Positions 23,883 to 40,466 of a stretch of DNA of 64,000 nt are shown here, one piece after another; the first letter of the stretch is position 1, and every line of letters starts with the position of its first letter. The position numbers and the translations under genes are program-made. A model generated the notes under the pieces. The model was not told the origin of the DNA, did not search any database, and saw only the letters and a list, made by a program, of their open reading frames with translations. Origin of the DNA: Betaproteobacteria bacterium (lineage in GTDB: Bacteria > Pseudomonadota > Gammaproteobacteria > Burkholderiales > SG8-41); contig JACQOJ010000074.1 in the NCBI GenBank assembly GCA_016202605.1, forward strand, positions 4,499 to 68,498, written 5' to 3'.

Positions 23883-24329
23883 TTACGCCGCGGTGCTCAC
23901 GTCCACCCGGACATCCGGCGTCGCAACTGCGACGCTGCCGTAGAGTGGTCACCGGCCCTTGAACTTGTCGATGAGCGCGGAACTTTGCGCCTCCGTCACG
24001 CCCGCGAGCCGGAACCGCAGATGCACGGAGTTGAAAACGGAGACGTCTCGCCGCACCGGATTGCTGCGATCGAGCGTGCCGGCAATCTCCACCTCGACCC
24101 CGCGCAACGGAACCTGGTCGGCCCTGGCAAAGGATTGCAGGAGCTCCACCCCGCAGGCGGCGATGCCGGTGAGGAAAAGCTCGGCGGGCGTGACCGCCTC
24201 ACCGGGGCAGCCATTCTGGACCGGGCCGTCGACAATGAAGTGGTGGTTGCGGGTGTTGCACAGCACCCGCCCGAAGGTGTCGGTCGAGCGCGCGTTGACT
24301 GCGTAGCTCCGAACTTCGCCTTGTGCCAT
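23883..24329 (-). CDS. OsmC/Ohr-like protein, predicted selenoprotein (Sec at TGA 23949-23951)
   Basis: TPAELFLTGIAAC (first Cys). In-frame readthrough gives KGR-U-PLYGSVAVATPDVRVDVSTAA-TAA, matching the second C-P motif of the OsmC family. Confidence 0.85.
23918..23935 (-). promoter_or_regulatory. SECIS-like hairpin of the OsmC-like gene
   Basis: GCGUCGC-AGUU-GCGACGC, beginning 13 nt after the UGA. Confidence 0.7.
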
Positions 24330-24352
24330 TTCATTTCCCCCATCGCTTTTCT

Positions 24353-24424
24353 GTGTCATGCCCGCGAAGGCGGGCATCCAACGTGCCGACCGCAATTAGA
24401 TTCCCGACTGCTCGGGAATGACAC
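24353..24424. repeat. REP-like palindrome (GTCATGCCCG/GTCATTCCCG...CGGGAATGAC family)
   Basis: GTGTCATGCCCGCGAAGGCGGGCATCCAA...ATTCCCG...CGGGAATGACAC. The same family recurs in at least eight clusters. Confidence 0.8.
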
Positions 24425-24584
24425 AGTAGATATAGTCTTGGTGTCCAGAAAATGCTAAACCCATATCCCGGCATATACAAGTTCTCGCCGATGAACGTGC
24501 CTTCGGTGGCAGATTGATGCGAAGCTGTTACGGCCATGGTGTCAGCGGCTCCTATAATATCGGCGTGACTTTGGTGAGGCACCC

Positions 24585-25487
24585 ATGACCCGCTCGAAGC
24601 TCCTTCTCGCGCCCGGTACGCTTTGGCCGGCGCTCGAGCGCGCGACGCGCCATGCGCTCGCATGCGGTGCGATGCAGCCCATCGAGACCGAGCAGGAAGT
24701 CGTGGAGGATGCCGGCGTGCGTTTCCTCGTGCGCCGGGTGTCGAGCCTCGCGCGCAAGGAACTCGAACGGCGCCGGCGCATCGAGAGCCCGGTGAATCCA
24801 TTCCTGCCTCACGAGCCCGATCTGTTTGTTGCGGAGGTGTCGGCGACACACGTCGCGCTTCTCAACAAGTTCAACGTCATCGACCGGCATCTGCTCATCG
24901 TGACGCGGCGTTTCGTGCACCAGGAGACGCTGCTCGACCGCGACGATCTCGCCGCGCTTCTCGCCTGCATGGCCGGGCACGAGGCGCTCGGTTTTTACAA
25001 CGGCGGGGTTACCGCGGGGGCGAGCCAGCCGCACAAGCACCTGCAGATGGTGCCGCTGCCGCTTGGCGAGGGAGGGACGCTTACCCCGATCGATGCGCTG
25101 CTCGACACGGTGCCGCACCGGCCGGGGTTCTGCACCGTACCGCGCCTCCCCTTCCGGCACACGTTCGCGTGGCTCGAACCCGCGCTCCCCGGCGATCCGC
25201 TCAAGGCCGCGGCGCGGCTCGAGGCGCTTTACCTCGCGGCGCTCGCACATATCGGCGTGATGGCGGTTGAGGGCGAGGGCGAGCACCGGCAGTCCGCGCC
25301 CTACAACCTGCTGGTAACACGCCGCTGGCTGCTCGCGGTGCCGCGGACACGCGAGCACTTCGATTCCATCTCGATCAACGCCCTCGGGTTTGCGGGTTCG
25401 CTCTTCGTGCGCGACGAAGCCCAGTTCGCCGCAGTGAAGCGCGCCGGGCCGATGGCGGTGCTGCGCGCCGTGGTGGAGTCTGCTTGA
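24585..25487 (+). CDS. ATP adenylyltransferase / Ap4A phosphorylase II family
   Basis: NPFLP, LLNKF, FYNGG..AGASQPHKHLQ, INALGFAG. Confidence 0.92.
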   Translation: MTRSKLLLAPGTLWPALERATRHALACGAMQPIETEQEVVEDAGVRFLVRRVSSLARKELERRRRIESPVNPFLPHEPDLFVAEVSATHVALLNKFNVIDRHLLIVTRRFVHQETLLDRDDLAALLACMAGHEALGFYNGGVTAGASQPHKHLQMVPLPLGEGGTLTPIDALLDTVPHRPGFCTVPRLPFRHTFAWLEPALPGDPLKAAARLEALYLAALAHIGVMAVEGEGEHRQSAPYNLLVTRRWLLAVPRTREHFDSISINALGFAGSLFVRDEAQFAAVKRAGPMAVLRAVVESA

Positions 25488-25555
25488 CGCCGGCATGTTT
25501 ACTTCATGAATCCGGAGACCTTCGAGCAGCAAGGCTCCGCGAGCGATACATCCGG

Positions 25556-25616
25556 CTACGCCGCCGTGCTCACGTCCACTCGGATATCCAGCGTCGCAAC
25601 CGCGATGCGGCAGTGG
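25556..25616 (-). pseudogene. Degenerate copy of the 3' end of the OsmC-like gene
   Basis: Encodes IAVATLDIRVDVSTAA-TAG versus VAVATPDVRVDVSTAA-TAA at 23883-23933. Confidence 0.75.
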
Positions 25617-25634
25617 AGCGATCATCCGAAGCCG

Positions 25635-25997
25635 CTATACGAAGTCCTTGATGAATTCGTAGTATGACCGCGCGCCATACTCGGAATGCCTGATCACTGA
25701 ACGCCTGATCTTCTCGATCCTGTTGAGGTACTCCTGGAGCGTGAGGTTGTTCACTATTCCGACGCGCTCCGTGCCGACCCAGACGCACCAATCGATAATT
25801 CCTTTCGCGAGCGGATGATCGGTGACCCTTTCGTTCTTCGCATATCCGAACTGTTTCTTTACGGCCACCTTGGCATTATCAAGCGCAAAAATGCAGACGG
25901 TGTCCGTGAGATCAGGATTGAGCTCGTATTGCTTCTTGAGACCGACTTCGATGTTCTGGAAAACATCGAGGTGTTCATCGTCATTGAGGTCCTTCAT
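25635..25997 (-). CDS. Hypothetical protein (120 aa, predicted helical)
   Basis: Protein-like composition, visibly lower GC than the flanks, no recognised motif. Confidence 0.7.
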   Translation of the reverse strand: MKDLNDDEHLDVFQNIEVGLKKQYELNPDLTDTVCIFALDNAKVAVKKQFGYAKNERVTDHPLAKGIIDWCVWVGTERVGIVNNLTLQEYLNRIEKIRRSVIRHSEYGARSYYEFIKDFV

Positions 25998-26007
25998 GCA
26001 GTTGCCT

Positions 26008-26130
26008 TCAATACCCGGCGGCTTCTTCCATCAAGAGTTCCGCGGGCGCCACGGATCGGAGTTCGTGCATCATCATTTTTCGTCAATGATGGTCCGCGAT
26101 TTCGATGTGCCGAGCGCCTGCGTCCGTGCT
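26008..26130 (-). pseudogene. HigB C-terminal and HigA N-terminal remnants (decayed toxin-antitoxin pair)
   Basis: ...TDAGARHIEIADHH* resembles the HigB ending (VEIVDYH). It is followed within a few nt by MMMHELRSVAPAELLMEE, resembling the HigA start (PxHPGEILxEE), which stops after 22 aa. Confidence 0.55.
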
Positions 26131-26155
26131 ACCGGCGGTACCGGTCTTGCGCCCC

Positions 26156-26326
26156 TCAACGACGCGCTGTGCGGCAGGCCACGAGATCAATAGACTCGGT
26201 TTTTGCGCGTTCGAGGCCGCGTTTAACTTTCTCGAGAACGTACAAATGATACTGAATGTCCTCGTAGCTCGCGTCGTCCGGCAGCTTTCCCAACAACGCG
26301 CGTACTTCGTCTTTCGGGCTGCCCAT
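26156..26326 (-). pseudogene. Small antitoxin-like protein with divergent or truncated C-terminus
   Basis: GGAGG RBS. MGSPKDEVRALLGKLPDDASYEDIQYHLYVLEKVKRGL resembles small proteins found upstream of RelE/ParE toxins; no cognate toxin follows. Confidence 0.55.
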
Positions 26327-26349
26327 ATCGCCTCCAAACGTGTGATTCG

Positions 26350-26509
26350 ATGCAACAGCACACTCGACACACAAGGGCTTCTCCTTTTCCATCCGCAGAA
26401 AGTCGCCCTTCGACAGTTCCGCTCCGCATTCCGAGCACACGGATGCTTTGAGTATCGAGAAGACAACCACGTCCTCTGCGGGCGCGGCCTTGCTCCGGCG
26501 CGTTTCCAT
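26350..26509 (-). pseudogene. N-terminal zinc-finger fragment, DUF2293-protein-like
   Basis: VVFSILKASVCSECGAELSKGDFLRMEKEKPLCVEC (CxxC...CxxC), then runs into unrelated sequence. Confidence 0.5.
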
Positions 26510-26516
26510 TTACTCC

Positions 26517-27671
26517 TCAGCGAAGAAACTCGCCGATGCGACGTACGCCCTCCTGCAACCGCTCGACTGAACTGGTGTAGGCGAAGCGCACGTGGGCGTG
26601 GGGCGTGTTCGCGCCGAAGTCGATGCCGGGCGTGATGGCCACACCGGCCCGTTCGAGCAGGTCGCGGGCGAACGCGAAGCTGTCCCGCGTGAGCGCGCTG
26701 CAGCCGGCATAAATGTAGAAGGCGCCCTGCGGCGTCTGCGGAATGTCGAAACCGAGCGCGCGCAATGCCGGCACGAGGTAATCCCGACGCGCCTTGAACT
26801 CGGCGCGACGGGCTTCGAGTATGGCGAGCGTCTCCGGCCGGAACGCCGCCAGCGCCGCGAGTTGCGCCGGCGTCGGCGCGGCGAGAAAGATGTTCTGCGC
26901 GAGCTTGTCGATCTCGCGCATGTAACGCTCCGGCACCACCATCCAGCCCACGCGCCAGCCGGTCATGTTGAAGTACTTGGAGAAACTGTTGATTACGAAC
27001 ACGTCGTCGGCGAGCGCAAGTGCGGTGGTCGCCTCCGTGTCGTACACGAGGCCGTGATAGATTTCGTCCACGATGAGCGTGCCGCCGCGACGGGTCGCGA
27101 ACGCGGCCATCGCTTTCAGTTGCCCGGCGGAAACCAGCGTCCCGGTCGGATTCGACGGCGAGGCGACGATCGCAGCCACCGCGCGAGAGCCCCAGTGCTG
27201 TTCGATCAACTCGGGCGTGAGCTGGTAGTTGCTGTCGGCGCCCACCGCGACCGCCACCGGCTCGCCTTCCAGCAGCCGCACGAAATGCCGGTTGCAGGGA
27301 TAGCCGGGGTCGGCGACCAGCACTTCCTCGCCGGGATTGACGAGCGCGCCCAGCGCCAGCAGCAGCGCGCCGGATGAGCCGGTGGTCACGATGATGCGCG
27401 AAGGCGGGATCTCCACGCCGTAGCGGGAATGATAGAACCCGGAGATCGCGTCGCGCAGCGCCGGCAGGCCGAGCGCCGGCGTATAGAACAGTTCGCCCTT
27501 CTCCAGCGCCGCAATGCCCGCTTCGCAGATCGGCCGCGGTGTGGGGAAATCCGGCTCGCCGATTTCCATGTGGATGATCGAGCGACCCTGCGCTTCCAGC
27601 TCGCGCGCGCGGGCGAGGATCTCCATCACGCGGAAGGGCGCGATGTCCCCCATGCGCGCGGCGAGATGCAC
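26517..27671 (-). CDS. PLP-dependent aminotransferase class I/II
   Basis: IGEPDF, SPSNPTG, VDEIY, NSFSKYFNMTGWRVG. Start GTG 27671 or ATG 27653. Confidence 0.92.
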   Translation of the reverse strand: MHLAARMGDIAPFRVMEILARARELEAQGRSIIHMEIGEPDFPTPRPICEAGIAALEKGELFYTPALGLPALRDAISGFYHSRYGVEIPPSRIIVTTGSSGALLLALGALVNPGEEVLVADPGYPCNRHFVRLLEGEPVAVAVGADSNYQLTPELIEQHWGSRAVAAIVASPSNPTGTLVSAGQLKAMAAFATRRGGTLIVDEIYHGLVYDTEATTALALADDVFVINSFSKYFNMTGWRVGWMVVPERYMREIDKLAQNIFLAAPTPAQLAALAAFRPETLAILEARRAEFKARRDYLVPALRALGFDIPQTPQGAFYIYAGCSALTRDSFAFARDLLERAGVAITPGIDFGANTPHAHVRFAYTSSVERLQEGVRRIGEFLR

Positions 27672-27770
27672 GTCTTTAGGATGCCCGTCACACGGGCATG
27701 ACACAAAGCGCCTGCGCGGCCACGACAGGCCTGTGTCATTCCCGAGAAGCCTGTCCTCCGAATTTTCCAT

Positions 27771-27830
27771 CTCTGTGATCTCTGTGGCAAAAAATCAAAA
27801 CAAGCCACAGAGCACACAGAGTTCACGGAG
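27771..27830. repeat. Inverted pair of 9-mer arrays (CTCTGTGRY / RCCACAGAG-like)
   Basis: CTCTGTGAT CTCTGTGGC facing GCCACAGAG CACACAGAG TTCACGGAG, adjacent to a GTCATTCCCG element. Confidence 0.7.
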
Positions 27831-27934
27831 AGCAGCCCCGCTCCCGCGTTGCAGTCGGCCCCGGTATTTTCGATCTCTGTGGCTTAAATACAAGGAACTT
27901 GATCCTGCTGGCGTCACTCGGCGTCAATCGGCGG

Positions 27935-28891
27935 TTATTTCACCGTCACGCCGCGGTCGGCGAAGTACTTCACCGCGCCGGGATGCCACGGCACGGCGGT
28001 CGCGCCTATGGTCTGGTTCTCCAGCGTCATGTTGGCGGATTCGCGGTGCGCGATGACGAGGTCCTGATGCCGGTCAAAGAATGTCTTGAGAATGTTGTAC
28101 GCGAGCTTCTCGTCCATGCTCTCGTGAACGAGCAGCACGCCCCACACGTTGATCGTCCGGCTTTCCTTCTCCTGGCCGGGGTAGGAGCGCGCCGGGATCC
28201 TGCCGGTGGCGTAGATCGGGCCGTACTTCTTGCGCATCGCCTCGAGGCCGCCGGCGTGATCGATCAGCTTCAACTTGATTCCCGGCGTTGCCGCGACATC
28301 CGTCACCGCGGGCAGCGGAACCCCGGCGGCGTGCATGAACGCGTCGATCTTGCGGTCCTTGAGCGCGTTGGCGGCCTCCGCCACGCTCAGGCGCTCGCGG
28401 GTGATGTCCTTGTCAGGATTGATACCGTGGGCCTCGAGGATGCGCAGCGCCATCACCTCCGTGCCGCTTCCGGGCGAACCGGTGGATACGCGCTTGCCCT
28501 TGAAATCGGCGATCTTCTCGATTCCCCTGCCCTCCGCGGAGACCACGTGCATCACGAGCGGGTGCACGACCGCAAGCGTGCGCATCGGCACCTTGTTGTC
28601 CTTGAACTTGCCCGTACCGTTCAGGCCTTCCCAGGCGACATCGACCATGGAAAAACCGACTTCAGTCTTGCGCGTGGCGATAAGCTTCACGTTGTCCACG
28701 CTGCCGCCGGTCACTTCGGCGGTCACCGCCGTATTCGGCATGTGTTTGGACAGAACGTTGGCCATCGCTCCGCCCATCGGATACCACACGCCCCCCGTGC
28801 CGCCGGTGGCGATCGACAGATTTACCTGCTGGCCGTGGGCAGTGATCGCAAACCCTAATGCGATCACTCCGCCGATCAAATATTTTTTCAT
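27935..28891 (-). CDS. TAXI-family TRAP solute-binding protein (no permease adjacent)
   Basis: ATGGTGGVWYPMG, TGGSVDN, GSPGSGTE, PWHPGAVKYF. AGGAGGAG RBS. Confidence 0.93.
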   Translation of the reverse strand: MKKYLIGGVIALGFAITAHGQQVNLSIATGGTGGVWYPMGGAMANVLSKHMPNTAVTAEVTGGSVDNVKLIATRKTEVGFSMVDVAWEGLNGTGKFKDNKVPMRTLAVVHPLVMHVVSAEGRGIEKIADFKGKRVSTGSPGSGTEVMALRILEAHGINPDKDITRERLSVAEAANALKDRKIDAFMHAAGVPLPAVTDVAATPGIKLKLIDHAGGLEAMRKKYGPIYATGRIPARSYPGQEKESRTINVWGVLLVHESMDEKLAYNILKTFFDRHQDLVIAHRESANMTLENQTIGATAVPWHPGAVKYFADRGVTVK

Positions 28892-28911
28892 GGCTGCTCC
28901 TCCTTTGGGAA

Positions 28912-29583
28912 TCAGAACTTGACCATATCGAACTTGGTCAGCGTCACGTTGCGCGAGACCACCGGCCCGTTGGCGAGGTGCCATGCCGTGTACTGTTCGG
29001 TATAGAGATCATTCGACACGCCGTCCACCGGTACGATGACTTTCAGCCCGCGCAATGCCGCCGCGCCGGCGGTGTAGAGGACCGCGCCGTGTGCCGCCGT
29101 GCCGATGGTGATCACGGTCTGGATGTCTTTGTCCTTGAGAATTTTCTCGAGGTCGGTGTTGATGAACTTGTCCGGCCCGGACGAAACGACAGGCTCGCTG
29201 CCGGTCGGCGCAACGTCCTTCAGGGTATCGGTGATCTTCGCGTTGGGAACCGTCGCGTACACGACGAACATGCCTTTGGAGCGCGCCTCGTCGAGGAATT
29301 TCCTGGCCGCCGGCAGTGACGCAAGACAACGCGGCCGCTTGCCGCAATTCTGGATCACGAAATCCAGCATCAGCAGCGCAGTGGTCTTCGCCTCAACCGT
29401 TACCGGTTTCAACTGGGGCGCGGGCGGCGCCTTCACACTTGCCCACTCGTCCACGATAGTCTGCGCCGACATCGCGGGAAAAGCCAGGCTGCACGCCGCG
29501 ACGAACAGAAGTCCCAGCGTCGATCGCCGGCCGCGGCGCTCTTGGCGAGACTGGACATGCAGGTTCTTGTCGAGATCGTTCAT
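28912..29583 (-). CDS. Secreted isochorismatase/cysteine-hydrolase-fold protein
   Basis: Signal-like N-terminus, TALLMLD, DKF..TDLEKIL, IGTAAHGAVLYT. Confidence 0.82.
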   Translation of the reverse strand: MNDLDKNLHVQSRQERRGRRSTLGLLFVAACSLAFPAMSAQTIVDEWASVKAPPAPQLKPVTVEAKTTALLMLDFVIQNCGKRPRCLASLPAARKFLDEARSKGMFVVYATVPNAKITDTLKDVAPTGSEPVVSSGPDKFINTDLEKILKDKDIQTVITIGTAAHGAVLYTAGAAALRGLKVIVPVDGVSNDLYTEQYTAWHLANGPVVSRNVTLTKFDMVKF

Positions 29584-29700
29584 GGATGTCCTCCGGTGGT
29601 GGGCAGATTATCGAAAAAGGTGCTCAAGGCTAGGCCAAAGACAGGCCGCTGGCAAGTCACAGGGCCGGGGCGCGCTTTATTCCACCGCCGTGGACAGCCG

Positions 29701-30210
29701 CTACGAACCGGCACCCCGTCGGGCGCCGCTGCCGGCTCGAGCCGGCAGCGGCAACGCCGTCTTGTACTTCACCTGCTTCAGCGCGAAACTCGATTTGATG
29801 CTGGCTACCCCGGGGATTTTCGCGAGGTAATCGACGATGAACCGCTCCAGTGACTGCACATCGGAAACCACGACCCGCAGCAGGTAATCCGCATCCCCCG
29901 TCATGAGGTAGCACTCCATCACTTCGTCGCGCGCGAGCACCGAGTTCTGGAACACGTCGAGCGCATTGCGCACCTGTTTCTCCAGGCTCACCTGGATGAA
30001 CACGCTCACCGTGAGCCCCAGCCTGAGGGGGTCGAGCAGCGTCACGTAGCGGCTGATGATCCCGCTTTTCTCCAGCGCTCGGACGCGATTGAGGCACGGC
30101 GAGGGCGAGAGGTTCACCGCCCGCGCCAGCTCCACATTGGACGCGCGTGCATTCTCCTGCAGCCGGCCGAGTATTTTCCAGTCCATGACGTCCAGTTCCG
30201 AATTCAGCAT
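29701..30210 (-). CDS. Lrp/AsnC family transcriptional regulator
   Basis: [30 protein letters not shown]. Confidence 0.95.
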
Positions 30211-30250
30211 TTTATTTCTCCATCCTATTTCTTTTCAGCATTTAATGCTG
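30205..30250. promoter_or_regulatory. Lrp-type operator sites
   Basis: Perfect palindrome CAGCATT-T-AATGCTG (30236-30250) and a related site CAGCATTTTATTTCT at 30205, 31 bp apart. Confidence 0.65.
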
Positions 30251-30384
30251 CATATGGATGACCTGTCAAGACGGTCCGCAACCATCTGCCGCGCGAGCTG
30301 CGCTATCATGAAATCCGATACCGACGTTCCGGATCCGGCTCCAGACCACGTACCACGAGCCACGAACCATGTCCAGAGGTTGTC

Positions 30385-33246: not shown

Positions 33247-33264
33247 GGTTCGCCTGTAGTTACT

Positions 33265-33522
33265 GTGTCATGCCCGCGTAGAGCCTGCCCTCGAGTGCTT
33301 TAATCGGGGGGCGGGCATTCAATTTTCGCCGCGTTGAAATTGGATTCCCATCTTCATGGGAATGACAAAGGTCTGTCATGCCCGCGTAGGCGGGCATCCA
33401 ATTTTCGCCGCGTTGAAATTGGATTCCCGTCTTCATGGGAATGACAAAGGTCTGTCATGCCCGCGTAGGCGGGCATCCAATTTGTCGTGGTTCAGATGAG
33501 ATTCCCGATTGTTCGGGAACGA
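33265..33522. repeat. Cluster of GTCATGCCCG/GGGAATGAC REP-like palindromes with a tandemly duplicated ~74-bp unit
   Basis: TTCGCCGCGTTGAAATTGGATTCCC..GGGAATGACAAAGGTCTGTCATGCCCGCGTAGGCGGGCATCCAA occurs twice. Confidence 0.85.
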
Positions 33523-33532
33523 CACAGCAGAT

Positions 33533-34552
33533 TCAGTTCCCGGGGACAAGGCGCGTCATCGGCATACCGGCGCCGATGTACACGTCCTGGGGGCCGGGAC
33601 CGCCGGCGACCGCGATGTAGATCTCGTCTGGACTCCGGGCGCGCCACACGGTATTCGCATCGCCACGGCCGGCGGCGATTTCCATCTGCGCGAAGTCGGT
33701 CGCAAAGTGCGATACCGGCAACCGCGCAAGTTCCCATAACCGCTGCCGGATGTCGCGCTTGGTAAGTCCGGCGCCATGCAGCGATTCCGCGTGGTTGACG
33801 CCGAGCAGCAGCAGCGCGCCGTCGCCTCCGCCGTACATCGGCGGCATGTTGGTCGCGATCTGGCGCAGGATCTCGTCCGGGCCCACGCCCTCGCCGCCCG
33901 AAATATTGCAGAAGTTCGACGCCTTGAATACGGTGACGGTGCTGTCTTCGCGGGAAAATCCGCGATCCACATGGAACGGCGCCCACGGATTCTCTTCCTC
34001 GTTCTCGCCGCAGATGTAGGAGTAGCGCAGCGGCGAGCCGAAGCTCACCTTCGAATATATGCCGGGCAGCGCGCCGCCGATATTGTTGAGGATGAGGCGA
34101 ATCGCGCGGCCGATGGTCGCATTCGCGCGCCATCCCGGTCCGAGGCAGCCGGTGCCGAAATTGATCTCGAGCTCGTGACGCACCGGTCCGTTGACGAGCA
34201 GAAAGGGCGTCATCGGGTTGGTCGTCACCTGCATGAATTCGAGCGGATAGTTGGGATCGGTCAACCCGTCCACCGCGGCGACGAGGAGCGGCATGTACTC
34301 CGGACGGCATCCGGCCATGACCGCGCTCACCGCGATCGCCTCCACCGTCGCCCTGCCCTTGCGCGGGGGCAGCAAGGCGATTACCTCTTCCGCCGCGCGG
34401 CCGCTTGCGGCAATGAACCGGTCCACGGCCTCCGGTGTTGCGGGGATGATGGGCAAGCCGTCGGTCCAGCCCTGTTCGTACGCGTGCTCGTAAGCGAGCG
34501 TGATCAGCTCCGCTGCCGACGGAGCCTCGAGTTGTTTTTGGGCGTGTGTCAT
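33533..34552 (-). CDS. Conserved hypothetical protein, partner of the UGSC protein
   Basis: GWTDGLPIIP, AVMAGCRPEY, GPGWRANATIGRA, ENEEENPW, VAGG. Starts 13 nt after the UGSC gene with GGAG RBS. Confidence 0.85.
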   Translation of the reverse strand: MTHAQKQLEAPSAAELITLAYEHAYEQGWTDGLPIIPATPEAVDRFIAASGRAAEEVIALLPPRKGRATVEAIAVSAVMAGCRPEYMPLLVAAVDGLTDPNYPLEFMQVTTNPMTPFLLVNGPVRHELEINFGTGCLGPGWRANATIGRAIRLILNNIGGALPGIYSKVSFGSPLRYSYICGENEEENPWAPFHVDRGFSREDSTVTVFKASNFCNISGGEGVGPDEILRQIATNMPPMYGGGDGALLLLGVNHAESLHGAGLTKRDIRQRLWELARLPVSHFATDFAQMEIAAGRGDANTVWRARSPDEIYIAVAGGPGPQDVYIGAGMPMTRLVPGN

Positions 34553-34565
34553 CGAAGGTGCTCCA

Positions 34566-35222
34566 TCATACAGGCACCGAGGCGCGCACCATGCCCTCGG
34601 GATGAATCTGCCGCTTCGCGATGTCCTTCAACCGGGTTTCGATCTCGGCCGGCGGCAGCGTGAGCCCTTCGACGAGCGTGCCGATCATCGCTTCGGCACG
34701 GACGCGCAACGCCTCCGGCTCGAGCTGGCGGATGGGGTTCGGGGTCTCCGCGATGATCACGTACGGGCAACCCTGCGTGGACGACATGCGCCGCGCGAAC
34801 TGCGCGAAGGTATCGGTGACGATCATCGCCGTCGGGATGCCGCGGGCTTCAAGAGCGGGGGTGACGTGGCTACACCACGTCGTGCACGAGCCTCAGTCGC
34901 CGGTCGCGGTGATCGCCACGTCGACGCGGCTCGCGAAATTGTCGAGCGTCTCGCGCATGGTATCGAGCAGTTTGCCGGTGCGAATCGGCAGTTCGCGCAC
35001 CGGCTGCTCGATGACCAGCGCCTTCAGGCGATAGCGTTCCTCGAGCAGGGTCCCCACCGCCTTGAGGATGTGCAGCGCCGAGGGCCGCCAGTTCGGCAGC
35101 AGCCCCACCACCTTGCCCTCCAGCGTCGCGGGGCGCGGCGCAAGCGTGCCGCTCGTCTCCGCCTCGTCCAGGTAAACGGGAAGAGGCGAAACCATCGTGA
35201 GGCGCATCATGGACTCGGACAT
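34566..35222 (-). CDS. UGSC-family thioredoxin-like predicted selenoprotein (Sec at TGA 34893-34895)
   Basis: ORFs 34893..35222 and 34566..34826 are one frame joined by ATGD-U-GSCTTWCSHVTPALEARGIPTAMIV. 218 aa. AAGGAG RBS. Confidence 0.9.
34863..34881 (-). promoter_or_regulatory. SECIS-like hairpin of the UGSC gene
   Basis: GACGUGG-UGUAG-CCACGUC, beginning 11 nt after the UGA. Confidence 0.72.
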
Positions 35223-35278
35223 GGATGACTCCTTTTCTGAAAAATGGCTCGTTTAATACCCCATCGGGGATGGTTGAA

Positions 35279-35420
35279 ATTGGATTCCCGATTGTTCGGG
35301 AATGACAAGAGAAGCCCCCTCGGGAATGACACAAGCGTGTCATTCCCGCGCAGGCGCGTTGTGTCATGCCCGCGCAGAGCCTGCCCTCGAGTGCTTTAGT
35401 CAGGGGCGGGCATCCAATTT
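35279..35420. repeat. REP-like palindrome cluster
   Basis: GGATTCCCG..CGGGAATGAC, GTCATTCCCG and GTCATGCCCG..CGGGCATCCAA units. Confidence 0.8.
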
Positions 35421-35473
35421 CGTGATGCTGAAACTTGATTCAGGTCAAGCATGGGCTTCGCATGGCGCCAGGT

Positions 35474-36379
35474 TCACGCCTTCGTGTTCGCGTAATGGTC
35501 CTTGCACTCCGCTTCGCGCCCGCGCACGACTCTCATGCCTGACAGCGGCCCGCGCGTTTCGGTGACCGCCGTATGCTGTCCCTCGGAGTGGTGATCGTCA
35601 TAAAAATAGATCACGACCCAATCGCGCACCTTGTCCAGCCGGTGCGCCTGCGCGGTGTTCGAATAAAGAGCGGTAAAGTGCCACACCGCACGCTTCGTAT
35701 GCAATACCGGCAGCCATGACTCTCCCCCGGGGTTGAAGCGGCGCGGCGCGATGGTCGGGAGCTTTCCTGCCTCTGCCTTCTCGCGGTACTCCCGGTCCAC
35801 ATCGAGGAGCAGCGCGACCGAAGGACCGTCCGCAAGCCGCGCCGCGCGGGGCGGAGGCACCCGCGTGCGCCTGAGCATCGTGGCGAGCGCGCCGCGAATC
35901 GCCGCCGCCCGCCGCGGCCCCATGCCCGGAACACGCTCCAGCCGCCCGTCGTGCGCCGCCGTTTCCAGCGCCTCGAGCGTATCGACGTGCAGATCGTCGT
36001 GAATGCGTTCGGCAAGACCGGGGCCGATCGCCGGAACGGACTGGAAAAGCGTGACCGCGTCGACCGTCCCGCGCAGGCGCTCGAGCTGGCTCCAGCGGCC
36101 GGTGATGAGTATCTCGGCGATCGCCGAGGCGATCCCGCGCCCGATCCGCGGCAGCGCCTCCAGGCCCTCGGCGCCCTTCTCGTCGAACACGGACCGAACG
36201 CCTTGCCCGAGCTGCACGATCTCCGCCGCGGCATTGCGGTAGGCATTGACGCGGAACGGATTTGCGCCCTGCACCTCGAGCAGGGTCGCCGTCTCGCGCA
36301 GCATGTCCGCAATCCGGACGTTTTCCGCGCGCGGGCCGGTGCGCGGTTGATTCACGGGAGTGCCAATTATTGTGACCAC
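35474..36379 (-). CDS. Helix-hairpin-helix DNA-binding protein with DNA polymerase X N-terminal-like domain (start uncertain)
   Basis: GANPFRVNAYRNAA, LPRIGRGIA, VPAIGPGLA, VPGMGPRRA. No polymerase catalytic or PHP domain visible. Confidence 0.85.
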   Translation of the reverse strand: MVTIIGTPVNQPRTGPRAENVRIADMLRETATLLEVQGANPFRVNAYRNAAAEIVQLGQGVRSVFDEKGAEGLEALPRIGRGIASAIAEILITGRWSQLERLRGTVDAVTLFQSVPAIGPGLAERIHDDLHVDTLEALETAAHDGRLERVPGMGPRRAAAIRGALATMLRRTRVPPPRAARLADGPSVALLLDVDREYREKAEAGKLPTIAPRRFNPGGESWLPVLHTKRAVWHFTALYSNTAQAHRLDKVRDWVVIYFYDDHHSEGQHTAVTETRGPLSGMRVVRGREAECKDHYANTKA

Positions 36380-36500
36380 TGACCGGGATTATATTGCAGC
36401 TCTTGCCCCTGCCGCGCGACAAGGGCACAATCGTGCGGCAAATCCGATCCGTGCGGGGCAACGGCCTCGCCTCGGACTGACGGCGCCAAAGGAGAGGGTC

Positions 36501-36938
36501 ATGAAATTCGCTGGTTTCCTGCATTTGAACGTTCGCTGCTCGAAGAGCGACATCCCCGCAATCGAAAAGTTCTACGGCGACGTGCTCGGCCTCAAGAAGG
36601 GCTATCGGCCGGCGTTCATGTTCGACGGGATCTGGCTCTATGACGGGGACGATCCCATCGTGCACGTGTCGGCGCGATTTCCGGAAGGCTCGATCGCGAA
36701 GAACGACAAGCACACCGGCAGCATCGACCATATCGCGTTCAAGGCGGCGGGCGCCGCGGACTTCCGCAAGCGCCTGAAACAGTTCGGCGTCGCCTTCGAG
36801 GAACAGAACATCGAGAACGCGGGATACCAAGTGTTCCTGCACGATCCCGTGGGCACCAAGCTCGAGTTCAATTTCCTGAACGAAGCGGTTCCGGACGCAG
36901 TGCCATTGGGCACCACGGCGGCAACCAACATCGCGTAA
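36501..36938 (+). CDS. VOC/glyoxalase family protein
   Basis: FYGDVLGL, IDHIAF, FLHDPVGTKLE. AAGGAG RBS. Confidence 0.9.
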   Translation: MKFAGFLHLNVRCSKSDIPAIEKFYGDVLGLKKGYRPAFMFDGIWLYDGDDPIVHVSARFPEGSIAKNDKHTGSIDHIAFKAAGAADFRKRLKQFGVAFEEQNIENAGYQVFLHDPVGTKLEFNFLNEAVPDAVPLGTTAATNIA

Positions 36939-37102
36939 GCGCCAAAGCCTCGATCCCGGTTCATTCATCTGCGCGTGCCGCATGGGGCGTCAACCGTCTT
37001 TGCGGGGAGCGCAGCGACGAAGCAACCCCGGGATCGGCCGCCGGACCAACGCGGGTGCCCGACGTGGGAAGAGATCGTGATGGCGCCGTGACCACCTTCC
37101 GC

Positions 37103-38353
37103 ATGCGCCGCCGCCTCGTCAATGGCGCGGTGGCGTGGTTGACCGGCGGATTCGCAACCGGCTTGTTCGTCGCGCGGGAGGCGACGCGTGCGGCGGGTGC
37201 AGAGGCAAAGCAAATGTCGCGATCAGTTGTTCACCCGGACGCCGGCTCGTCCCACCTCACGCTCTTTCTGTGCGGCGACGTGATGACGGGTCGCGGCATC
37301 GACCAGGTGCTCCCGCATCCCGGCAAACCACATCTCTTCGAGCCCTATATGCGCTCGGTGCGGGGCTACGTGGCGCTGGCCGAGGAGAAAACGGGACCGC
37401 TGAAGCGGCCGGTGGATTTCGCATATGTCTGGGGCGATGCGCCGGCTGAATTCGAGCGCGTGCGGCCGGACGTGCGGATCATCAATCTCGAAACCGCGGT
37501 GACGACAGCCGAGGATGCCTGGCCGGGTAAAGGCATTCATTACCGCATGCATCCCGCCAACGTCCCCTGCATCACGGCCGCGGGCATCCACTGCTGCGTG
37601 CTCGCGAACAACCACGTGCTGGATTGGGGCTACGACGGCCTGCGGGAAACCCTCGATGTGCTGCGCGGCGCCGGCATTCGCGTTGCGGGCGCAGGGCGGA
37701 ACGATGCGGAGGCGGCCGCACCCGCGATCATCGAATTGACCGGCAAGGGCCGGGTTGTGGTGTTTTCCTTCGGTACCGAGAGCGCGGGCGTGCCGCGCGC
37801 GTGGGCGGCGCATGGAAATCGCGCGGGTGTGAATTTCCTTCCCGATTTCTCCGAACGGAGCGCGGATTCGATCGCGCGGCAGATCCGCGCCGCGAAACGC
37901 CCCGGCGACATCGTCGTGGCCTCCATCCACTGGGGAAGCAACTGGGGCTACGAGATTCCCGACGAACAACGCGCCTTTGCACACCGTCTCATCGATGCGG
38001 CCGCCGTGGACGTGGTGCACGGGCATTCTTCACACCATCCGCAGGCAATCGAAGTCCATCGCGGCAAACCGATCCTCTACGGTTGCGGCGACTTCCTGAA
38101 CGACTACGAAGGCATCAGCGGTCACGAATCGTACCGCCCCGACCTCGCCCTGATGTACTTCCTGACGTTCGATGCCGCGGGCAGCCTGGCGCGCCTCGCC
38201 ATGACGCCGACGCAGATCCGCCGCTTCCGCGTGAACCGCGCGCCGGACGAGGGCGCACGCTGGCTCGAACGGATGCTGAACCGCGAGGGGCGCCCGTACT
38301 CCACGCGCGTCGATCGCGTCCCGGACAACACGTTCCTGCTGCGGTGGCGCTGA
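37103..38353 (+). CDS. CapA/PgsA family metallophosphoesterase-like protein
   Basis: CGDVMTGR, INLET, LANNHVLDWG, SIHWG, HGHSSH. RR-type leader; alternative start 37214. Confidence 0.9.
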   Translation: MRRRLVNGAVAWLTGGFATGLFVAREATRAAGAEAKQMSRSVVHPDAGSSHLTLFLCGDVMTGRGIDQVLPHPGKPHLFEPYMRSVRGYVALAEEKTGPLKRPVDFAYVWGDAPAEFERVRPDVRIINLETAVTTAEDAWPGKGIHYRMHPANVPCITAAGIHCCVLANNHVLDWGYDGLRETLDVLRGAGIRVAGAGRNDAEAAAPAIIELTGKGRVVVFSFGTESAGVPRAWAAHGNRAGVNFLPDFSERSADSIARQIRAAKRPGDIVVASIHWGSNWGYEIPDEQRAFAHRLIDAAAVDVVHGHSSHHPQAIEVHRGKPILYGCGDFLNDYEGISGHESYRPDLALMYFLTFDAAGSLARLAMTPTQIRRFRVNRAPDEGARWLERMLNREGRPYSTRVDRVPDNTFLLRWR

Positions 38354-38360
38354 CAGCCGC

Positions 38361-38966
38361 TCACGGCCGCAAACCGTTCCCCCATCCGCCTTCGAAAAAG
38401 CGCTCGGCAAGCGGTTTTCTGCCGCGCGCGCGCAGTTCCTTCGCCTTTGTTTCATCGTCGAGGATGTCGGGCTCGGCCTGGTAGCCGACGGCGATCATCG
38501 ACATCGGCGCGTACTCGGCGGGAACTTCGAATGCCGCGCGCGCTTTCTCGACATCGAATCCTCCCATCTGGTGCGCGACCAATCCCAGCGCGAGCGCCTG
38601 CAGCGCGATGGACAAACTCGCCGCACCGGTGTCGTGCTGCGTCCAGCGATTGGGTTTGCCGTTATGCTGGAAAAGGCTGCCGGCGCACGAGAGCATGAGC
38701 AACGGCACGTTCTTTACCCATTTCCGGTTATTTTCCGACAGGCAGTCGAAGGCTTTCTGCCAGCCCTCGGGATCCCGCTTTCGCTCCCAGATCAGATAGC
38801 GCCACGGTTCGTCGCCGTTGCACGAGGGCGCCCACCTCCCCGCCTCGAGCAAGGTCACCAGTTGCTCGCGCGTGACCTCGCGCGCGGGGTCGAAGGCGCG
38901 TGGACTCCACCGCCGCGCCAGCAAATCGTGAATGGGAACACTCGTCGTCGCTCGTCGCTCCTGCAT
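38361..38966 (-). CDS. Nitroreductase family protein
   Basis: RRWSPRAF, EAGRWAPSCNGDEPWR, HQMGGFD. Confidence 0.93.
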   Translation of the reverse strand: MQERRATTSVPIHDLLARRWSPRAFDPAREVTREQLVTLLEAGRWAPSCNGDEPWRYLIWERKRDPEGWQKAFDCLSENNRKWVKNVPLLMLSCAGSLFQHNGKPNRWTQHDTGAASLSIALQALALGLVAHQMGGFDVEKARAAFEVPAEYAPMSMIAVGYQAEPDILDDETKAKELRARGRKPLAERFFEGGWGNGLRP

Positions 38967-39002
38967 TTCGGACTTCCTTTGTTGAGTAGTTCTAGGTTCA
39001 AG

Positions 39003-39057
39003 GTAGGTCGGCAATCCTTTGCCAACAATCGCCGGCGGCATGGGAATACCGCCCTAC
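39003..39057. repeat. GTAG-type REP element, copy 1
   Basis: GTAGGTCGGCAATCC...GGGAATACCGCCCTAC, near-identical to 45523-45577. Confidence 0.8.
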
Positions 39058-39089
39058 CATGTCGTCGTTCATCGGTCATCATTCATCGT

Positions 39090-39512
39090 TCATTCTTTGA
39101 CCTTCGCCTTGTCCAGGGCGAGCGGTCCGGCGCCGAACGCCATCACGTAGAGCAGCCCGCCGATCATGGCGACATTCTTCATGAAATGGTTGAGCTGGTT
39201 GCCGTAGTGCGCGGCATCGGCCGCCCAGAAATCGTGAAAGACGAGGGTCGCGGGAATCATGAACACGATCAGCAGCAATGCGCCCCAGCGCGCCTTCCAG
39301 CCGATGACAAGCATGATCGCGCCCGCCAGCTCGAGGACGATCGCCCCCACCAGCAGGACCTCCGCCATCGGCATGCCCTTGCTCGCCATATAACCCGCCG
39401 TGCCGGCGAAGTTCGTGACCTTGCCGAAACCGGACTTCAGGAAAATCAGCGCCATCAGGATGCGTCCCGCCAGGGGACCATAACGTTTCGCCGCTTCGCA
39501 CAGTCGCTCCAT
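39090..39512 (-). CDS. DoxX family membrane protein
   Basis: GRILMALIF..SG..K, FHDFW, HFMKNVAMIGGLL..G.G..ALD. AAGGAGG RBS. Confidence 0.93.
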   Translation of the reverse strand: MERLCEAAKRYGPLAGRILMALIFLKSGFGKVTNFAGTAGYMASKGMPMAEVLLVGAIVLELAGAIMLVIGWKARWGALLLIVFMIPATLVFHDFWAADAAHYGNQLNHFMKNVAMIGGLLYVMAFGAGPLALDKAKVKE

Positions 39513-39521
39513 GTTGCCTCC

Positions 39522-40466
39522 TTACTCCATAGGTACGTCGATCGCAATCTCGTGTCCGGCGGCAATCCACGCCTCCAGACCGCCTTCGAGCGGGCGCACG
39601 CGTTTGAACCCCTTGTCCATCAACAGGCGGGCGACACGCGCCGCGCTCGCTTCATTCGGTCAACTGCAGTACACCACCACGTCGTGGTCCGGGGGCACCG
39701 CGGCAAGACTGATCCCGGGAACGTTGATGTCCACCGCAACCGCACCCGGAATGCGACGCGGATCGAGCCGGCGCGCCATGCCCGACCGGGCATCAAGTAT
39801 CACCAGTTCAGCTCCACTTCGCATCAGGTCGTGCAACTCCCCGACGCTGATGCGGACCATCCGCAGAAAGCGAATGAGGAGGTAGCGCTCCAACCCCTTG
39901 ATCCCGGCGTAGGCCGCAATGATACCCGCGAGCAGCATCAGCGCGCCGGTGCCCGTGTTCACCAGCCACGCGAGGGCCTGCTCCACTTCGGAGTGAAAAA
40001 ACATCCCGGCAACCACCGGCACCGCGGCCCACAGCAACGCACCCGCGGAGCTGTAGCCCGCGAATCGCCCGATGTCGAGACGCATCGTGCCGGCCAGCGG
40101 CGGCGCCACCGTCGCGAACCCCGGAATGAACTTCGCCACCACGAGCGACGGGGCACCCCAACGCTCGAAAATGTTCTCCGTCTGCTTGACGCACGAGTCC
40201 GGTTCGATCGCTATGCGGCAGAGCGTGCGCAGGATGCGGTATCCGTGGCGCCGGCCGGCGACGAACCACAGCGCATCGCCGAGCAACGATGCCGCGACCG
40301 CCGTCACGAGCACCCCGGCCATGGCGAGTTCTCCCTGCTGCACGAACGCTCCGGCCACCACGAGCACCGGGATCGCCGGCACCGGCAGCCCGGCCTGGGT
40401 GAGGAACACGTTCACGAACACCAGCGTCAATCCATGCTGGGCGAGGAGGTTCGTCATTTCCTGCAT
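39522..40466 (-). CDS. DedA/VTT-rhodanese fusion, predicted selenoprotein (Sec at TGA 39660-39662)
   Basis: DedA motifs (GLPVP, AKFIPG) and rhodanese motifs (ILDAR, IPGA). Readthrough VVYCS-U-PNEASAARVARLLMDKGFKRVRPLEGGLEAW...PME-TAA completes the rhodanese fold and ends 9 nt before the doxX start. Confidence 0.9.
39627..39650 (-). promoter_or_regulatory. SECIS-like hairpin of the DedA-rhodanese gene
   Basis: GCGGC-GCGU-GUCGC core with a bulged GCG/CGC extension. Loop GU at +23/+24 after the UGA. Confidence 0.55.

Follow-up and report, generated by a model that had tools for sequence, protein, structure and literature searches.

In bacterial selenocysteine (Sec) insertion, SelB binds the G/U in a hairpin loop some 20-24 nt past the UGA and brings Sec-tRNA to that codon. 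The bSECISearch consensus (PMC13188914) describes a loop of 3-9 nt with a G in its first two positions, located 16-37 nt from the UGA, on a stem of 4-16 bp with an energy of at most -7.5 kcal/mol. Selenoprotein-rich organisms, defined as having at least six such genes, were reported among Deltaproteobacteria, Clostridia and Synergistetes (PMC5029168), and the top ten genomes of BSepDB hold 46-63 genes each, with no Pseudomonadota genome among them (PMC13326102). According to a 2026 review, aerobic bacteria rarely keep selenoproteins and anaerobes are listed as the richest, and an earlier survey found Sec users to be split between aerobes and anaerobes.

The UGSC selenoproteins have long been known as a family (PF24696, NF041046; Table 1 of PMC13188914; PMC2398784), for which the GOS survey (PMC2398784) reported a UGSC/Unknown_1 fusion and an enrichment in non-marine samples, and supposed a Trx-like fold. 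Other described relatives of the genes analysed here are the OsmC-like UxxT selenoprotein (PMC1088965; NF041052) and the rhodanese-like selenoprotein form 3 (NF041203). In this paper, we report on three predicted selenoprotein genes in a 64,000-nucleotide stretch of a Burkholderiales contig, hereafter the window, and on the selenoproteome of their host family.

Three in-frame TGA codons, their hairpins and the Sec machinery

The features of the locus are as follows, with protein lengths given for the read-through products.

23883..24329, minus strand: OsmC/Ohr-fold gene (PF02566), 148 aa, with C59 and predicted Sec127 (R-U-P-L-Y-G)
23919..23934, minus strand: SECIS-type hairpin of the OsmC gene, loop A-GU-U, G at +22
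23949..23951, minus strand: in-frame TGA, predicted Sec127 of the OsmC/Ohr-fold protein, at a conserved Cys position
33533..34552, minus strand: partner gene of 339 aa, no Pfam family, directly after the UGSC gene
34566..35222, minus strand: UGSC-family gene (PF24696), 218 aa from the first ATG, predicted Sec110 (G-D-U-G-S-C), ordinary TGA end
34863..34881, minus strand: SECIS-type hairpin of the UGSC gene, loop U-GU-A, G at +20
34893..34895, minus strand: in-frame TGA, predicted Sec110 of the UGSC protein, at a conserved Cys position
39090..39512, minus strand: DoxX-family membrane gene, not a selenoprotein, directly downstream of the DedA-rhodanese gene
39522..40466, minus strand: DedA/VTT-rhodanese fusion gene (PF09335 and PF00581), 314 aa, predicted C267-S-U269 in the rhodanese active-site loop
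39627..39644, minus strand: SECIS-type hairpin of the DedA-rhodanese gene, loop C-GU-G, one bulged base, G at +23
39660..39662, minus strand: in-frame TGA, predicted Sec269 of the DedA-rhodanese protein, at a conserved Cys position

A first-pass annotation of this DNA had placed in-frame TGA codons at 23949, 34893 and 39660, each at a family Cys position and each followed by a loop GU at +22/23, +20/21 and +23/24, respectively. The coordinates are correct, all on the minus strand, each codon aligns with the Cys of homologues, and the loop positions hold when the base following the TGA is taken as +1. The E. coli fdhF reference of G23/U24, given for comparison, is true when counted from the U of UGA but equals +20/21 in the count used for the three genes, as checked on the fdhF gene itself; the exact E. 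coli spacing is therefore found in the UGSC hairpin only, with the OsmC and DedA loops lying 2-3 nt further out.

In each loop the GU is flanked by two complementary bases, N-GU-N' (AGUU, UGUA and CGUG, compared with GGUC in E. coli fdhF), the fold energies are -8.7 (OsmC), -11.2 (UGSC) and -9.0 (DedA-rhodanese) kcal/mol, and the published SECIS limits for loop, G, spacing (16-37 nt), stem and energy accommodate all three hairpins. The shared geometry that had been noted is thus present at all three sites, but it is that of the general bacterial SECIS model (a coding-region hairpin just 3' of the UGA, with G then U in a small loop) and nothing in it is peculiar to these genes. An Rfam scan of four loci returned tRNA-Sec only, with no match to a SECIS family. 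A strict rule, which called for an N-G-[U/G]-(N)-N' loop at +18..+25 on at least 4 Watson-Crick pairs, was passed by chance in 17/1273 other TGA-ending gene calls, 14/872 TAA/TAG calls and 82/5674 Cys codons; the rule was devised after the candidate sites had been seen, and its hit rate on candidates is partly circular. Within the window it was passed by 5 of the 34 TGA-ending calls, namely the three sites and two hits with the minimum of four pairs, located where ordinary genes end.

No sel gene was found in the window, in line with the first-pass annotation. The lack of tRNA-Sec, SelA or SelB had been named as an outcome that would count against Sec; selA, selB and tRNA-Sec (77.7 bits against a cut-off of 47) were all found on contig C48. 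Of selABCD, selD was not found in the genome (assembly 73.7% complete); it occurs with one TGA in 8/8 same-genus genomes. Across the host family, selA was detected in 135 of 151 genomes and in 74 of the 79 that are at least 90% complete; some of the five genomes of this completeness without a selA match carry a TGA gene (e.g. G004, G029). SelB and tRNA-Sec would decode each UGA via its loop G/U hairpin.

Conservation of the OsmC-fold and DedA-rhodanese genes

The predicted structure of the OsmC gene product has the OsmC fold (TM 0.84, pLDDT 95.7) and, with two conserved Cys positions, the protein belongs to the OsmC/Ohr superfamily: U127 aligns with the Cys of the Ohr 'VCPY' motif, which is the second conserved Cys of the family, and C59 with 'AACF'. 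This second position is usually called resolving in OsmC proteins. TGA was found in 38 of 39 OsmC matches spanning residue 127 and, among 60 distinct homologous genes, in 57 (TGC in the remaining 3), with the TGA form also occurring in records titled Acidobacteria, Chloroflexia, Opitutales and Gemmatimonadaceae; these and the following counts are of homologues that share ancestry and are not independent events. The hairpin alignment comprises seven pairs, with 100% of 273 cells paired and four pairs changed on both sides, and its covariation of 0.361 compares with 0.138 after shuffling (0/500 shuffles); sliding gave no more than 0.097. The loop reads AGUU in 37 and GGUC in 31 of 68 TGA loci, and neither in the Cys loci (0/3). 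On plasmids, the OsmC query matched distant Enterococcus OsmC proteins only. By analogy, as with the functions proposed below for the other two proteins, the OsmC-fold protein is most likely a thiol peroxidase or reductase that would work through a C59-U127 selenenylsulfide cycle.

C267 of the DedA-rhodanese protein lines up with the canonical Cys of rhodaneses. TGA occupies the site in 108 of 110 matches spanning residue 269 (position checked in 30 loci), and the genes compared comprise 39 distinct ones with TGA and 18 with Cys. The loop CGUG is present in 41/41 TGA loci and 0/18 Cys loci. Codons +6..+10 are invariant in 39/39 Sec genes, with a synonymous diversity of 0.0, against 0.59 in the 18 Cys genes; because synonymous sites are frozen, amino-acid constraint is insufficient as the cause, and another RNA signal is possible. 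The hairpin is short (4 stem pairs and a closing pair) and invariant, hence it gives evidence of constraint without covariation. One Cys gene is nested within a Sec clade (support 100/99) and has lost the loop U, which documents a Sec-to-Cys reversion, an event termed rare in the 2026 review. The deep branches of the tree fit one or several Sec origins alike. The DoxX gene is a neighbour in 12/29 family loci. The protein is likely to be a membrane-tethered sulfur-/selenium-transfer or redox enzyme whose loop would carry C267 and U269.

A lack of conservation 3' of the UGA codons had been the other outcome expected to speak against Sec; this sequence was found to be conserved in relatives. Beyond the hairpin, third codon positions account for most of the differences (0.24/0.18/0.61 and 0.23/0.17/0.47 for the three positions), and there are no stops. 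The expectation that annotation would fragment such genes is borne out for DedA-rhodanese, whose database entries stop at the TGA: of the 120 best hits, 116 have lengths of 265-269 aa and YCS, YCN or YCT as their last residues.

Such truncated database products, together with a DedA domain that is complete before its TGA, are what would be expected if the TGAs were true stops or recent nonsense mutations in truncated or dead genes. However, TGA recurs at this codon in different genera and phyla, the 3' part retains a coding pattern and matches the Cys homologues in tail length, and selection acts on the hairpins only in genes with TGA at this position; this conservation refutes the true-stop reading, to which we give hardly any weight. 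A similarly negligible probability attaches to UGA being read as Cys, Trp or Gly, either genome-wide or via a SECIS-dependent Cys-charged tRNA, with no selenium involved. The missing selD would agree with such a reading, but 1518 of the 2592 gene calls in the genome end in TGA, the relatives' SelD is itself encoded with a TGA, and the sole tRNA with a TCA anticodon is the tRNA-Sec beside selA and selB. Since that is the sole TCA-anticodon tRNA and tRNA-Trp has CCA, a UGA=Trp/Gly code is excluded, in agreement with the first-pass annotation. With the machinery present and both the codon and its 3' sequence conserved, comparative sequence evidence makes it very likely that the three TGAs are Sec codons, read by the host's standard bacterial SelB/tRNA-Sec machinery.

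Linkage, the UGSC family and the size of the selenoproteome

That the three genes lie within 17 kb had been given prominence; the closeness is real but looks incidental, with neighbours that are not conserved. A functionally linked selenium island would be compatible with the Sec explanation, and three of the 17 sites of the genome do fall within 15.7 kb, which occurred in 3.4% of random placements; all three are on one strand. This figure is post hoc, however, and some ten unrelated genes lie between them, in both orientations; the window neighbours recur in only 3-6/29 OsmC loci, and in the fragmented assemblies of relatives, for example G045, G031, G052 and G004, the OsmC and DedA genes are on separate contigs. 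Co-operonic genes with a conserved neighbourhood, as in operons of the SAO/Tso type, were not observed, and we consider an island unlikely. Each of the three genes belongs independently to a selenoproteome that is family-wide and dominated by UGSC; together they form no cluster, operon or single system.

The UGSC gene scores 133.1 bits against PF24696 (cut-off 25) with the U-G-S-C motif present, and 101.2 bits against the NF041046 equivalog, below the cut-off of 125. All eight UGSC matches in the genome have one TGA, and homologues of the partner are fused or adjacent to seven of them, the eighth being at a contig end; this partner domain may or may not correspond to Unknown_1 (PMC2398784). 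The predicted UGSC model matches flavodoxin-like alpha/beta (or Rossmann-like) folds (best Z 11.1, rmsd 3.0, 127 aligned), with no thioredoxin among the top fold matches. A PDB sequence search with the UGSC protein gave no match, and its similarity to PrdB/GrdB is weak (E 7e-4, probability 27%). The UGSC protein likely provides the redox half, with its U-x-x-C motif, of an enzyme in two parts, the other being the neighbouring partner domain. UGSC was found in 60/60 relatives tested, with a median of 13.5 matches per genome.

The first-pass annotation had proposed an unusually rich selenoproteome, and the genome was found to contain at least 17 genes predicted to encode Sec, each supported by its family and by a hairpin, compared with the six that define a selenoprotein-rich organism (PMC5029168). 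The formate dehydrogenase of the genome has no TGA. A DsbA-like gene (C61 11123; V-V-U-P-W-C) has family support and no hairpin and is an uncertain Sec candidate. Further candidates (C30 9086, C37 15455, C143 45422, C6 3185, C6 28496, C139 26587, C95 24333, C138 11217 and others) proved to be ordinary stops, gene junctions or broken genes. In the relative G014, at least 56 Sec genes are predicted, a total that would rival the record holders and enter the published top ten. The CMD, OsmC-UxxT and ArsM Sec genes were not found in G014, nor were the OsmC-Sec127 and DedA-rhodanese forms. The excess of Sec genes is mostly due to one family, UGSC.

An aerobic host had also been suggested. The genome has an oxidase subunit that we take to be cbb3-like by its motif, and the aa3-type oxidase gene (CtaD) is present in 57/60 relatives, but CtaD was not found in the genome itself; judging from gene content, the host family is likely to be oxygen-respiring.

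Comparison with described selenoproteins and selenoproteomes

None of the three proteins reaches the NCBIfam cut-offs. The OsmC gene shares with the UxxT form the OsmC/Ohr fold and two conserved Cys positions, but UxxT proteins have Sec at the first Cys, whereas the present protein has C59 there and the predicted Sec at the second (R-U-P). It scores 32.1 bits against NF041052, below the cut-off of 95; a true UxxT member is also encoded in the genome, on contig C119 (162.7 bits), and BLASTP gave no significant match between the two. The DedA-rhodanese protein has its best NCBIfam hit (E 3e-19) in rhodanese-like form 3, which has C-x-U at the same motif, but it scores 68.8 bits against the cut-off of 115 (126-position model) and has an additional DedA/VTT membrane domain. 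Cys-type DedA-rhodanese fusions of other Burkholderiales have the same architecture, and the word 'DedA' is absent from the text of the 2026 review. The OsmC form with Sec at the second Cys and the DedA-rhodanese fusion are both absent from the 2026 catalogue. Public databases consistently contain shortened versions of both forms, and annotation therefore misses their redox sites.

Taken jointly, the data may describe an as yet undescribed group of uncultured, oxygen-respiring Burkholderiales with selenoproteomes of record-anaerobe size (at least 56 genes in G014), driven by a very large expansion of the uncharacterised UGSC two-part enzyme and including two uncatalogued forms; we offer this combined claim tentatively, holding it slightly less probable than its opposite. 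With Sec and Cys sister genes and a Sec-to-Cys reversion in one lineage, the question of oxygen versus selenocysteine is testable there. Compared with the known UGSC family, the host family carries from 2 to over 50 copies per genome. The aa3-type oxidase genes of the relatives, beside their many UGSC matches, contrast with the anaerobe-rich picture of the 2026 review: gene numbers are like those of the selenoprotein-rich bacteria described before (PMC5029168, PMC13326102), but the host is a Burkholderiales family with genes for an aa3-type oxidase.

Predicted read-through genes, hairpins and decoding machinery

The three in-frame TGA codons proposed in the first-pass annotation were confirmed on the minus strand, with the reading frame open through each. 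The genes and hairpins are as follows (U, predicted selenocysteine, Sec; G000, the source genome; C, contig):

G000:C37:4499-68498, the window
24329..23883, minus, OsmC-family gene, 148 aa, U127, TGA read as U
35222..34566, minus, UGSC gene, 218 aa, U110, TGA read as U
40466..39522, minus, DedA/VTT-rhodanese fusion gene, 314 aa, U269, TGA read as U
23919-23934, minus, OsmC hairpin, loop GU at +22/23 after TGA
34863-34881, minus, UGSC hairpin, loop GU at +20/21 after TGA
39627-39644, minus, DedA-rhodanese hairpin, loop GU at +23/24 after TGA

The GU positions agree with those first reported, counted after the TGA. The accompanying comparison with G23/U24 of E. coli fdhF held for the GU in the loop but not for its numbering, which starts at the U of UGA and corresponds to +20/21 here. 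The fdhF loop, GGUC, and all three window loops follow the pattern N-GU-N', in which N and N' are complementary. Folding energies were -8.7 to -11.2 kcal/mol, and all three hairpins satisfied the bacterial SECIS criteria in the accessible part of the published description (PMC13188914). A strict hairpin rule (N-G-[U/G]-(N)-N' loop at +18..+25, at least 4 Watson-Crick pairs), drawn up after the candidate sites had been inspected, was satisfied at 17 of 18 candidate sites; background rates were 17/1273 for other TGA-ending calls, 14/872 for TAA/TAG calls and 82/5674 for Cys codons. A looser folding rule used earlier gave a background of 73/1283. By eye, imperfect repeat motifs could be seen in the intergenic stretches 5' of the OsmC gene and the UGSC gene (window 24331-24440 and 35230-35440).

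There is no general reassignment of UGA because 1518 of the 2592 gene calls in G000 end in TGA and its sole tRNA with a TCA anticodon is tRNA-Sec, which upholds the earlier dismissal of a UGA=Trp/Gly code. The absence of tRNA-Sec, SelA or SelB had been named as grounds for rejecting selenocysteine; all three are encoded together on contig C48 of this genome (2.8 Mb, 73.7% complete, 64% G+C). No selD match was found in the 73.7% complete assembly; selD is present in 8/8 same-genus genomes, with one TGA in each, and selA in 135/151 family genomes (74/79 high-quality ones). In genus g4, three genomes (G136:C205, G101:C181, G064:C152) carry the OsmC Sec gene and selA on one contig, 1.5-10 kb apart.

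Unrelated genes on both strands separate the three Sec genes, relatives show no linkage among them, and random placement of 17 sites brought three within 15.7 kb in 3.4% of trials, a post hoc figure; their closeness is read as incidental. All three are very likely genuine selenoprotein genes, with decoding by the mechanism already known. One belongs to a family already known (UGSC) and the OsmC and DedA-rhodanese forms are uncatalogued variants; no NCBIfam model (June 2026) takes either form, one 'GroundWater' selenoprotein model being present. In the literature available, a Burkholderiales search gave off-topic papers only.

Conservation of the OsmC and DedA-rhodanese forms

Sequence conservation 3' of the UGA had been proposed as a test, and both genes showed it. 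The OsmC gene was present in 39/151 family genomes, with TGA in 38/39 matches spanning residue 127, and its motif was recovered in 71/72 loci (68 TGA and 3 TGC; 57 and 3 without duplicates). In 39 distinct 42-nt stretches the 7 hairpin pairs were paired in 273/273 cells, with both sides changed at 4 pairs; the loop-closing pair is A-U (19) or G-C (20), at two synonymous sites. Covariation scored 0.361; shuffling gave 0.138 and sliding no more than 0.097. As the sequences are related, this is not a probability. The loop was kept in 0/3 Cys genes. Closest GTDB records are titled Betaproteobacteria or Burkholderiales MAGs; others are titled Acidobacteria, Chloroflexia, Opitutales and Gemmatimonadaceae. 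Two loci at 70-73% identity (L077, L082) occur in records titled Bordetella parapertussis MAGs, titles that look like automatic mislabels.

The protein model has the OsmC fold (pLDDT 95.7, TM 0.84). In the Ohr alignment C59 matches the first conserved Cys and U127 the second, usually called the resolving Cys; the TGA does lie at a family Cys position. Available text on Ohr describes two essential Cys, a VCPY motif and lipoyl-dependent reduction (PMC8945050). UxxT is the motif of the catalogued OsmC selenoprotein (PMC1088965), the only form given in the literature consulted; the window protein scores 32 against that family's cut-off of 95. A UxxT-type gene also occurs in G000, on C119.

The DedA-rhodanese gene was found in 111/151 family genomes, with TGA in 108/110 matches spanning residue 269; in 30 loci the site was TGA in 29 and TGT in 1. 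Codons +6 to +10 were identical in 39/39 distinct Sec genes; synonymous diversity was 0.50 elsewhere in the examined stretch of Sec genes and 0.59 at the same codons of 18 Cys genes. With site and hairpin codons masked, the tree placed the Cys gene of relative G118 inside a Sec clade (support 100/99); support holds for the clade around G118, the deep branches being without resolution. On this placement the gene is a Sec-to-Cys reversion. Its locus (L034, G118:C2:10554-11468) has lost the loop U, and selA is still in G118. In the wider order, 45/301 genomes gave a match to the rhodanese part; Sec forms occur in f1, f7 and f14, Cys forms in other families.

In alignment with solved rhodanese structures, C267 matches the canonical Cys, and U269 is therefore a second, additional residue in the loop. 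The suspected fragmentation by standard annotation is evident among the best 120 database proteins, where 116 stop at the TGA and Cys is found in the 4 that are full-length. Downstream lies a DoxX gene in 12/29 family loci. In L010-L039 the Ser codon before the TGA was AGT in 34/34 Sec genes with Ser there, possibly a context effect on read-through. In the literature available, no paper combined DedA, selenocysteine and rhodanese.

Predicted selenoproteomes of the source genome and its relatives

Scanning 73,922 TGAs and comparing 12 candidates with protein families gave 17 predicted Sec sites in G000, in keeping with the rich selenoproteome first suspected:

Sec sites in G000: 8 UGSC, 2 OsmC, DedA-rhodanese, PrdB-like, ArsM-like, glutaredoxin, MerP-like, two AhpD/CMD-like

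The glutaredoxin (U-S-S-C; L166, G000:C48:8542-9357) lies 2 kb upstream of selA and forms a fusion with a DinB-like domain, and the MerP-like metal-binding protein (L167, G000:C133:7988) exceeds the TIGR02052 cut-off and has M-T-U-A-G-C with a clear hairpin. A DsbA-like gene (L169, G000:C61:11123) has V-V-U-P-W-C at the catalytic Cys and lacks a hairpin of the usual form; it was left as uncertain: its SECIS may be non-canonical, or the TGA may be a nonsense mutation. The formate dehydrogenase of G000 has no TGA.

All 8 UGSC matches in G000 contain one TGA, and homologues of the partner gene (34552..33533) are fused or adjacent at 7/8; a fusion is already described in the accessible part of the GOS paper (PMC2398784). 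That text supposed a thioredoxin-like fold, whereas the predicted model (window 34650-35180) matches flavodoxin-like alpha/beta proteins, a close structure being absent among the matches. U-x-x-C is in register with PrdB/GrdB-like proteins in a weak profile match (E 7e-4, probability 27%).

UGSC occurred in 60/60 relatives (2 to at least 47 matches, median 13.5; six or more in 53), with one TGA in each of the matches listed (150 of 899); across the order 19/201 genomes matched, mainly in f1, f7 and f14. Relative G014 (98% complete, 2% contamination) had 58 matches, 54 with TGA and 51 without any other stop; G052 had 40, G072 35 and G034 31. All 30 of the G014 matches examined carried U-G-[S/G/A]-C and 27 passed the strict hairpin rule; these copies are not assembly duplicates, since their nearest paralogues are only 35-73% identical. 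Over nine families tested, G014 has at least 56 predicted Sec genes (L175-L213), comprising 51 UGSC, three GrdB/PrdB-like, SelD and glutaredoxin. One locus of this Burkholderiales genome, L205 (G014:C148:4958-6007), encodes a GrdB-type reductase selenoprotein B at full length (S-T-U-G-T-C).

An aa3-type CtaD was found in 57/60 relatives, G014 included; G000 gave no match and has two COX1-family genes, one of them cbb3-like. The selenoproteome size of the host lineage is unexpected for likely aerobes. The top ten genomes in the available text on BSepDB have 46-63 selenoprotein genes, none being Pseudomonadota (PMC13326102); the predicted total for G014 is comparable, in a genome with an aa3-type oxidase gene.
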